Positions 38,901 to 41,900 of a stretch of 64,000 nt of DNA are shown here, one piece after another (the first letter of the stretch is position 1; every line of letters starts with the position of its first letter). The stretch is taken from positions 25,606,001 to 25,670,000 of the forward strand of contig OZ004611.1 in the NCBI GenBank assembly GCA_963924565.1. Reading direction: 5' to 3'. The stretch comes from Ascidiella aspersa (lineage: Eukaryota). The notes under the pieces were generated by a model, which was not told the origin of the DNA, ran no database searches, and worked only from the letters and a program-made list of their open reading frames with translations. The position numbers and the translations under genes were made by a program.

Positions 38901-41900
38901 CTTTAAATCTAGATGTTTAACACATTTTTTTATTTCGAGCAATTTTTCGCTATAATAATTCTATACAAGACAAAGTTAATATCCCGTTCATTAAAATAAA
39001 TTATACAGGATTTAAAGCCTATTATAATGAAAAATATTTTGACGTGTAAACGAATATTCAATGTATAAAACGCAAACATGTCCAAATTTCTGCACAACGC
39101 CAAGTCGTTGACAGAATTAATTCACTTTTATTGAAATAATCACTTTAGACACAACTAGAAGCTCCCCAAAGCAAATTATTTTTGGTTTGTTTACGATTGA
39201 ACAATAGCTTTGACAACTATAGTTCCACTGCCCAGAATTTTAAATTTTTTGCGAGCCAGCTCACCTTAAACGACATCTCCCAGGCGTACATCTTGAGCAC
39301 TTTGATCCCGTTCAGCACTTCGTTCATCAACTTAATTCTTTCGTCCTTGTGTTTCATTTGGCGAACCTGGCGAAAATTTTTATAGCGTTTTAAATACCGG
39401 GTTACCTTTTTCGAACTGAAATGCCAAATTTTACACCAGTATAGCATCAGGCTGGCTTGCGCCAATGTGTCTACTAAAATGTCTGATCACCGTTTAAGTA
39501 AACTTCATTAGGGTTATATTCATATTGCTTCAAAAGTCAGAGGCAAGTGCAGCGCTAATATCAGAGTTGTTTTAAATTTTATGTTGCTAGCTATATATTT
39601 AAACACGCATCATTTGTCCATTTTTCGAAGTTTAATAGAAACAGATTTGGTGCCCCTCATAAACAAATATATTTTTTCCCCCTACACACATTAACAAAAA
39701 TCATTAAAAACCTTGTATCAGCTTGTAATAAAAAGAATCCTTACCTGTAGTTTGTGGGCTTTGCTTGCTATCAGTCCGTTGATGGGAATCAGAAGGATCA
39801 TAACTCCCAGACCAGCCAAGACCGAAGGTCCGAGTTGTTGAAAGAGAAAGTACATTGCAAGGATGATCTGGAATGGGCCTGAGCAGAGTCCAAAACAAAA
39901 TATGTTATAGGTATGATGGTGGGTGTGCAACATTGCCGGAAATGGCTGAAAGTGGAACCTATAGGAATTGAGGTATGAATGGTATTTAGAAGGTAAAACT
40001 AAGTATTATGAACATTTGTTTGTCTTGATCTTACGTCATTGTAGAACTAATTCGAGTCAAATAATATCAAGATTTAGATCAGAAGCAGGTTAGGAACATT
40101 AAAATTCCTACTTCTGGCTTTATTTACGCCATTTGGCCACTTTTGTTTTAAATAGGCACAGAGTTTCTGAATTACGTACAAATTACATCGTTAACTGAAA
40201 AGAATGAAACACAGTGTAAGTAGGATTCCAACTACACAAACTGATCTAACCTTACAGTAGCTAACATAAATATAAACGAGGTTAAAAAAAATGAAACGGT
40301 GGTATTATTCAACCTTAATTGGAGCAAAATGCAAAAAAATACCAGACCTAAGTGTTCAATTAAAGCGGAAGGTCTGTCGACTTACCTGACCAAATGATGT
40401 TGATGTAAGACATGAGGTCCATAAATCGCTGGGCATCAACCGACATAAGGTTGACCACTTCACCAACTGTGCTCTCCTTCTTGGCCGAGTTGGTCATTAT
40501 CAAAGACTAAAAAAGCAAATAAGGTTCATCAAGTAAATATTGCTGTAAATCACAGCGAAACCAAATCTAAAAAAAAAACGACCCGCTTGTTATTGTAAAT
40601 ATCCCGTCTAGGTCAAGGGTGGGCAGCCTACGGACCAAGATCTGACGTCCACCGCGAATTATGGCCCGCGACCTACTTTCCAAACTGGGAAGGAGGCCAT
40701 TCATATGTTCTTGGCTATTTCCAAGAAAGTAAAAGCATTTTGTTTTTGTTTTGCGAAAATATTGTTCATGCTTTGAATGTTACTTGTATTTATACCCTTT
40801 TTCAATTGCCAAATACCCTAATCTTCAATAGAAAAAGAGTGGCCCAAATAGAGGATAAAAAATTCATTATTTTATTTGCATACGTTTCGGCAAGGCTTAT
40901 GCCATCTTCAGTGCGGTAAAATGAGGTTAAGATAAACGCGAATCGTTAGAACGACGCTCGGACGTTTTATGAACGCTTTAAAAGCCGAAAACGAAAAAAG
41001 GAGGTCGCGAAGTAAGGGTGAGAGCGGCCAAAATAAATGATAAAAGATTCATTCTTTTATTTTCATACGTTATTTTATCATTTATTTGGGCCACTCTTTT
41101 TCTATTAAAGATTATGAACAGATCCGTGTTTAGTGTTCCAAAATACCCTAGCTTTATCATTGATTAACATTTGTTGCGGTTGTGATAGAAGGGTGATTCA
41201 AGTCTTCACAGTTAAACTTTAACGGATTCTTGTTCTTAGGTAAGGAGATTGGCTCACGAAATGTACAGTATGGAGAGACAAACAACTATTGGCTGTGTGT
41301 GTGAACAAACACTTTTTAACAACTAAGCACTTCACACCGGTATGAATCACCGGCAAATAGAGTATAGGCAGGGGCGTAGCGTGGGGGGGTATCTAGGAGT
41401 CTTGACACCCCCCTTTGGAATCTCAGTAAACAATTATCACAAAACTAAAACCGTGATTCCTGCAATGTTACATCGCAAACATTGCACCTGGCGTTGAAAA
41501 CACGTCGGTGCTTATCGCCGCCAACGCCTAATCACCGCTTGTTATCGTTGTTTCATTTAGCATTTCGTCTGTCAATAACTCAAGTACTGTAATCTTAATC
41601 AAGCTTAATAACGAAAATATATTTTATTGTTGGGACAAACATTTTTAACAACGTAGAAAACAAGCTTGTAAGGTACAGCAAACGTCTTCACCGCAGGTCG
41701 CTCTATTGAATGTTTTTTATTAGCCTCAATCTCGAAAAAGAGCGCTTGGCCGTCGCATTTTAGAATACACGAAACGAAAATTTTTTCGGGCTTCGCCCCT
41801 ACTCGCTGGAGTTCGTTCACACCATACCTTACTGATTATGTGACACAGTGGCGTATCCAGGGGGCTGGGGTTTAAAAAAAACTATTGTAACCAAAATCTA

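Follow-up and report, generated by a model that had tools for sequence, protein, structure and literature searches.

The locus considered here raises a simple question: does a hammerhead motif that lies in the sense strand of an intron of a multidrug-transporter gene cut the pre-mRNA that carries it? The window, a 64,000-nt stretch of contig OZ004611.1 from the ascidian Ascidiella aspersa, had been described in a first-pass annotation that foresaw two outcomes, self-cleavage that affects splicing of the transporter, or a motif that is tolerated because its monomer is weak. The motif is the minimal hammerhead of a Penelope-like element (PLE) pseudo-LTR (pLTR), carried on a truncated 320-nt copy, and we consider it highly probable that it is an inert passenger, predicted not to cut often enough to matter.

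Read on the minus strand from 40914 to 40878, the motif has a 3-bp stem I (GCA/UGC), the core CUGA-A-GA followed by one extra U, a 4-bp stem II (GGCA/UGCC) with a 7-nt loop, and GAAA-C-G-U-A17. The extra nucleotide, which follows position 9 and precedes 10.1, is U 40904, the G10.1-C11.1 pair is G40903-C40889, and an ACGU palindrome (15.2-16.2) replaces helix III. H17 is 40881, so that the predicted cut falls between 40881 and 40880, where the first-pass annotation had put it. The annotation's claim that the core and stems I and II are intact was borne out by a position-by-position reading and by a match to a hammerhead descriptor, the motif being the descriptor's sole match in the 64-kb window. 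Across 200 dinucleotide shuffles, hits of the loose descriptor averaged 0.02 per shuffle, and the strict minimal form turned up in 0 of 200. An Rfam scan of the motif returned no hammerhead match, either at the gathering score or at E<=10.

The gene that hosts the motif resembles ABCC1/MRP1 and was traced on the minus strand by 35 tblastn segments from 51359 to 17960. The best match of the exon upstream of the motif is an MRP1-like protein of Phallusia mammillata (89%), with Ciona and Clavelina next. The two flanking exons and the GT..AG intron between them (Table 1) confirm that the motif is in sense orientation within an intron of an ABCC1-like gene. The same intron holds a second PLE-type stub, of another family, whose core at 43114 is antisense to ABCC1 and has one extra base that breaks stem I. 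That family is more abundant than the flagged one (2,300 first-look candidates), and further pieces of it lie in the window at about 378-465, 2049-2135, 32606-32799 and 63134-63184. Other repeats were noted as well. A tRNA-derived repeat, probably a SINE, has three copies in ABCC1 introns (20927-21105, 29321-29397 and 31412-31591; Rfam tRNA 54 and 33 bits), and an ABCC1 intron contains a 25-nt minisatellite with near-identical units at 25755-26229. Elsewhere in the window there is a frameshifted transposase remnant on the plus strand at 56526-58411 (DUF4371, E 2.8e-5), which we take to be hAT-like, and a neighbouring plus-strand gene at 10571-15718 with long open frames of 187-324 aa that gave no Pfam match.

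Table 1. Positions in the window of the hammerhead, the insertion that carries it, and the surrounding ABCC1-like exons and intron
Feature	Positions	Strand	Basis or remark
Minimal type I hammerhead	40878..40914	-	manual reading and descriptor; full pattern in 172 family copies
Whole insertion, 320 nt: 5'-truncated, partly inverted PLE pLTR fragment, non-coding	40821..41140	-	copy comparison
Main pLTR fragment	40821..41020	-	starts about 140 nt upstream of the cut site, ends 60 nt beyond it
Partial tandem copy of pLTR tail, 52 nt	41021..41072	-	-5 to +46 relative to the cut site
Inverted copy of pLTR 3' end plus roughly 30-nt tail extension	41073..41140	+	+21 to +93
Target-site duplication, left copy, 10 nt	41141..41150	-	read from sequence
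Target-site duplication, right copy, 10 nt	40811..40820	-	read from sequence
Upstream ABCC1-like exon	43660..43834	-	human MRP1 residues 357-406
Downstream ABCC1-like exon	40386..40506	-	human MRP1 residues 408-446
Host intron, 3,153 nt, GT..AG	40507..43659	-	longest of 32 mapped ABCC1-like introns; mostly repeats
Second PLE-type stub, another family, inverted arms	42926..43229	+	minimal hammerhead core from 43114

The motif came with a mobile element. In transcript order, the insertion consists of an inverted 3' end with its tail extension, the tandem tail piece, the pLTR body, the hammerhead and a 60-nt tail, and it is flanked by a target-site duplication. The window copy has no ORF of its own and, across 176 nt, matches the pLTR of an intact relative, L045, at 81% identity. 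Intact elements were located by a genome search with one endonuclease as query. L045 has a single 848-aa open frame in which a reverse transcriptase domain (RVT_1, E 1.6e-9) is followed by a C-terminal GIY-YIG endonuclease (E 1e-5), the layout of an EN+ PLE, and the frame sits between 1,038-nt direct repeats that are 99.9% identical, each with a hammerhead motif. The direct repeats and the inverted, 5'-truncated, tailed copies are likewise EN+ PLE traits; an inverted piece is found nearby in 39 of 60 family loci. Several family copies have reverse transcriptase or endonuclease fragments upstream, and the broken reverse transcriptase fragments at two loci (L031 and L033) gave no Pfam match. The window copy belongs to a more diverged GUA subfamily, which is presumably older. 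A Penelope/Poseidon-type placement is suggested by a single character, the absence of a zinc-finger linker from L045.

Two readings of the insertion's shape were rejected. The inverted piece is complementary to 40860-40819 (93% over 42 nt) and could pair with it, as the arms of a MITE might, but both arms are copies of the PLE pLTR 3' end, one in each orientation. A 185-nt retrozyme or circular-RNA monomer was also ruled out, as the tandem piece begins 5 nt upstream of the cut site and lacks the core, and the family copies are variable truncations of a coding element. In L045 the hammerhead (4739-4690, minus strand) is in frame with the start of the ORF; two ATGs lie inside the core and the next is 14 nt past the cut site, so that cleavage would alter the 5' end of the reverse transcriptase mRNA. 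At least two other PLE families have open frames of 816-843 aa in tandem (C3:10336273-10339397, C4:6271525-6274649 and C9:23488030-23493713 of G000), and several PLE lineages therefore look recently active in the genome.

Could the lone motif adopt an active structure? As a monomer the RNA folds at -6.6 kcal/mol, forming both stems and no helix III. A double-hammerhead shape comes to -9.5 to -12.7 kcal/mol, versus -13.2 for two monomers and -16.1 for a non-catalytic cofold, all of them values to be taken as indicative. The pairing probability of stem I was 0.04 in contexts of 390-1,100 nt and 0.83-0.98 in short contexts. Misfolding in context was discarded as proof of inactivity because it is not robust: stem I pairing ran from 0.00 to 0.98 with flank length, misfolding is thus not established, and it was given no weight. 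Cervera and De la Pena (2014, PMC4209133) report that a PLE minimal hammerhead showed no detectable cleavage as a monomer and low cleavage as dimers and trimers. By analogy with that work, a monomer that lacks helix III and whose helix I is 3 bp long would be unable to hold the active fold, and would need a second ACGU-bearing unit such as tandem PLE transcripts provide. The annotation's expectation that dimerisation through ACGU would be required is supported.

These folding results bear on the possibility of leaky, unselected cleavage, in which ABCC1 pre-mRNA would now and then be cut by the motif as it is being made, without being selected against because few transcripts are lost or because splicing outpaces the cut. 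Such cutting might be helped by RNA chaperones or by pairing with the ACGU of another transcript. The intact core and stems, which do fold in short contexts, speak for it, as does the suggestion in PMC4209133 that host factors may activate such motifs in vivo; nearest-neighbour energies, which do not favour the dimer, speak against it. We regard leaky cleavage as improbable.

A partner for the motif was sought nearby. On the minus strand of the window no second CUGA core was found, the flagged core standing alone. An ACGUA half-site at 41070-41066, 185 nt upstream in the tandem piece, is the sole partner close by, and that piece has no CUGA core. Its stem I' is UGA where the family has UGC, leaving a 2-bp stem I, and forcing the fold costs 8.3 kcal/mol. 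One could propose a split dimer, in which this ACGUA completes helix III so that ABCC1 pre-mRNA is cut in cis at 41066/41065 and the transporter is throttled. If true, it would be a simple route from PLE debris to an active, splicing-coupled intronic ribozyme, but we give it very little credence. More generally, the insertion might be an exapted regulator whose hammerhead, completed in cis by the half-site or in trans at high transcript levels, tunes ABCC1. The presence of a half-site in the tandem tail is what such a regulator would call for; its altered stem I' and the cost of forcing the fold weigh against it, and we judge exaptation, too, to be very unlikely.

The population of related motifs in the genome gives a second line of evidence. 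The pattern CTGANGA-N10-24-GAAACGT occurs 4,102 times in the whole 309-Mb genome, versus 122 for a reversed-pattern control, and the fully paired pattern of the flagged family occurs 172 times versus 0. A DNA search with the insertion gave 59 matches from 40 scored of 368 candidates, the best other copies being 79-93% identical. A first sample of motifs (sample 1) was made up of 77 loci with 93 of the first 100 motifs listed, from all families; 46 of the 93 passed the same intactness rule as the flagged motif. Stems vary between families yet remain paired, indicating that selection acted on the elements.

To score decay within the family, 30 copies were chosen for overall similarity and 28 were kept after the removal of two segmental duplicates. 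Core positions were off the majority in 18 of 364 cells (4.9%), compared with 114 of 2,257 (5.1%) in those flank columns that show no subfamily variants (Fisher p=1.0). For all other columns outside core and stems the count was 225 of 2,697, and stem positions, at 11 of 392 (2.8%), were somewhat below the flanks. The core decays like its flanks, in a neutral-like manner. The flagged copy differs from the family majority at 10 of 125 positions, with none of the differences in the core or stems, an outcome with a chance of about 0.1-0.25. This preservation can be counted in favour of exaptation, against which stand the motif's status as one of thousands of minimal stubs and the lack of any sign of selection on sequence or, as shown below, on orientation.

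The ends of the copies suggest how the insertion arose. None of 61 motif-bearing copies ends at the cut site. Their 3' ends lie at +6 to +95, mostly at +52 to +66 or +85 to +95, and 51 of the 61, a set chosen to contain the whole motif, extend at least 52 nt past the cut site. As all 61 extend past it, the template RNA appears to have been uncut there. We propose that an element RNA running 60-90 nt past the cut site, and hence uncut at that site, was reverse-transcribed, and that 5' truncation, template switching and inversion during copying would have given the present insertion. Breakpoints at 5' ends were taken from two sets, L185-L214 (30 loci chosen by tail only) and L125-L184, with some loci common to both; neither set showed a pile-up at the cut site. 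The 5' breakpoints do cluster just upstream of the hammerhead: of the 36 located from -71 to +23, 13 lie within -45 to -34 (p=3e-4 for an interval picked post hoc), and stem I starts at -35. The cluster may reflect stalling or template switching by the reverse transcriptase after it has copied the fold, or a short transcript that starts there.

A ribozyme that aborts transcripts is expected to be rarer on the sense strand of introns. Orientation was assessed with a home-made exon-chain model, trained on 29 ABCC1 exons and self-trained on the 77 loci of sample 1; the call was the strand on which a spliceable exon chain spans the motif, with a score of at least 30. The 93 motifs of sample 1 gave 25 sense and 15 antisense calls, the rest being without a call, and reversed or complemented controls passed in 8 of 186 cases. 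Among intact motifs the split was 14 sense to 4 antisense (p=0.03), and among decayed ones 11 to 11. Sample 2, scored with the model frozen, comprised 60 intact family copies from 100 listed of the 172, and excluded most inverted pairs lying close together, duplicates in clusters and loci taken for sample 1. It gave 11 sense and 13 antisense calls (controls, 10 of 120), so that the sense excess among intact motifs of sample 1 was not repeated. The pooled ratio for intact motifs is 25:17 (p=0.28; 95% CI 43-74% sense). Sense depletion is absent in the predicted introns, although mild depletion is compatible with the data, and this argues for inertness.

Pfam searches gave independent gene assignments for some of these calls. 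With 142 predicted exons from sample 1, one gene was found on both sides of six sense motifs, four of them intact (two in P450 genes, one each in BTB-Kelch and SPT5 genes), and of five antisense motifs, none intact; some calls lie between two same-strand genes and are probably intergenic. With 91 of the 101 predicted exons from sample 2, both sides were supported for three sense copies, in genes for a myosin head (myosin heavy chain), LRR-TIR and WD40-SH3, and for three antisense copies. A copy possibly in an RPS19 intron (L127) was left out of the count because the downstream RPS19 exon was not found. In the SPT5 case (L107, 5223-5467) the minimal hammerhead belongs to another family; it is intact, in sense orientation and located in an intron of roughly 240 nt that interrupts the KOW6 domain, and it would be a good test case for tolerance.

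Sequencing reads bear on the host gene and the insertion. The stranded RNA run carries the same species label but is from another individual, which may or may not carry the insertion; about 6% of it was read, and junctions in mature RNA are blind to uniform transcript loss. Exon reads had the orientation expected of minus-strand RNA, and unique bins in the intron had zero depth in that part of the run. The junction 43660>40506 was crossed by 4 reads with 4 starts, and six neighbouring junctions were listed with 3, 7, 9 (in two rows), 3, 5 and 4. Spliced ABCC1-like mRNA is made in the species, and the reads are no measure of cleavage. A family-type loop base that the flagged copy lacks was present in 11 of the 12 RNA reads over the motif, which therefore come from other copies. 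Transcripts of other family copies thus exist, a point for leaky cleavage, as is the location of the predicted cut 374 nt upstream of the 3' splice site of the host intron. Against it, most of the other-copy reads are opposite in orientation to the exon reads, and no read-end pile-up was seen at any place in this shallow run of mature junctions. In the DNA, both runs, which are from one study and one of which may be the assembly source, gave a contig across the internal junction 41020/41021; at the outer junctions the contigs have an overlap of fewer than 31 bases, which was not counted as bridging. The internal junction is specific to this copy, and its presence in both runs is a further point for an exapted regulator.

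Of the two outcomes foreseen by the first-pass annotation, tolerance of a weak monomer is the one that our results support. Regulation of transporter splicing is not supported: the motif belongs, as the pLTR ribozyme, to one truncated PLE copy among thousands, sense-strand copies of its family show no deficit in predicted introns, no full partner lies in cis, and the host intron is spliced at a level like that of its neighbours in RNA reads of low depth from a different individual. Under the inert-passenger reading, a single copy in a pre-mRNA of low abundance would leave with the spliced intron without having been cut.

As found, the locus adds a further PLE pLTR hammerhead to those known and is of little importance. 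What can be reused is the control, namely that intact family motifs are about equally frequent in sense and antisense in introns, including one of a myosin heavy chain gene. This parity gives population-level support to the in vitro result that lone PLE minimal hammerheads do not cut.

Known intronic ribozymes offer a precedent for regulation. Like the amniote hammerheads in RECK, CTCL and DTNB (PMC6155905) and the CPEB3 ribozyme (PMC10919898), the flagged motif is of a self-cleaving type and lies in the sense strand of an intron. These precedents lend some plausibility to exaptation, but the exapted intronic hammerheads described in PMC6155905 are canonical and conserved across species, and the CPEB3 ribozyme is conserved as well, whereas the flagged motif is a minimal, putative ribozyme in an 8%-diverged repeat copy. 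CPEB3 is reported to cut with a half-life of 2-3 min (PMC10919898). A literature search for links between intronic ribozymes and splicing yielded CPEB3 and reviews. Our search found no paper that joins hammerhead, Penelope and ascidian; the supplements of PMC4209133 may list tunicate motifs.

Non-LTR retrozymes, as described in bioRxiv 10.64898/2026.07.22.740005, resemble the window copy in being non-coding and PLE-related with a type I hammerhead, and about 44% of their copies in Xenopus tropicalis overlap introns. They differ in being tandem arrays with at least two complete hammerheads, whereas the window copy has one and its family consists of variable 5' truncations of a coding element. 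EN+ PLE insertions of the Penelope/Poseidon type (PMC8557442) share with the flagged insertion and its family 5' truncation, partial tandems, a C-terminal GIY-YIG, an inverted 5'-truncated copy at the 5' end and a 30-40-bp tail at one end only; unlike them, the window copy is a non-coding 320-nt stub.

The closest counterpart is the PLE minimal hammerhead, which PMC4209133 describes as type I, with a palindromic 15.2-16.2 segment for helix III, an extra nucleotide between 9 and 10.1 and a G10.1-C11.1 pair, located in both pLTRs of elements with reverse transcriptase and GIY-YIG domains and present as thousands of dispersed single copies of truncated elements. The flagged motif likewise has the CUGANGA...GAAA...UH core, the ACGU palindrome and a location in the pLTR of a reverse transcriptase and GIY-YIG element. 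It differs from the Schistosoma families of that paper in its ascidian host and in the lengths of helix II (4 bp versus 7-8) and helix I (3 bp versus 4-5). In sum, the flagged family is a new member of the PLE minimal-hammerhead kind described in 2014, and the copy in the ABCC1-like intron is ordinary mobile-element debris.
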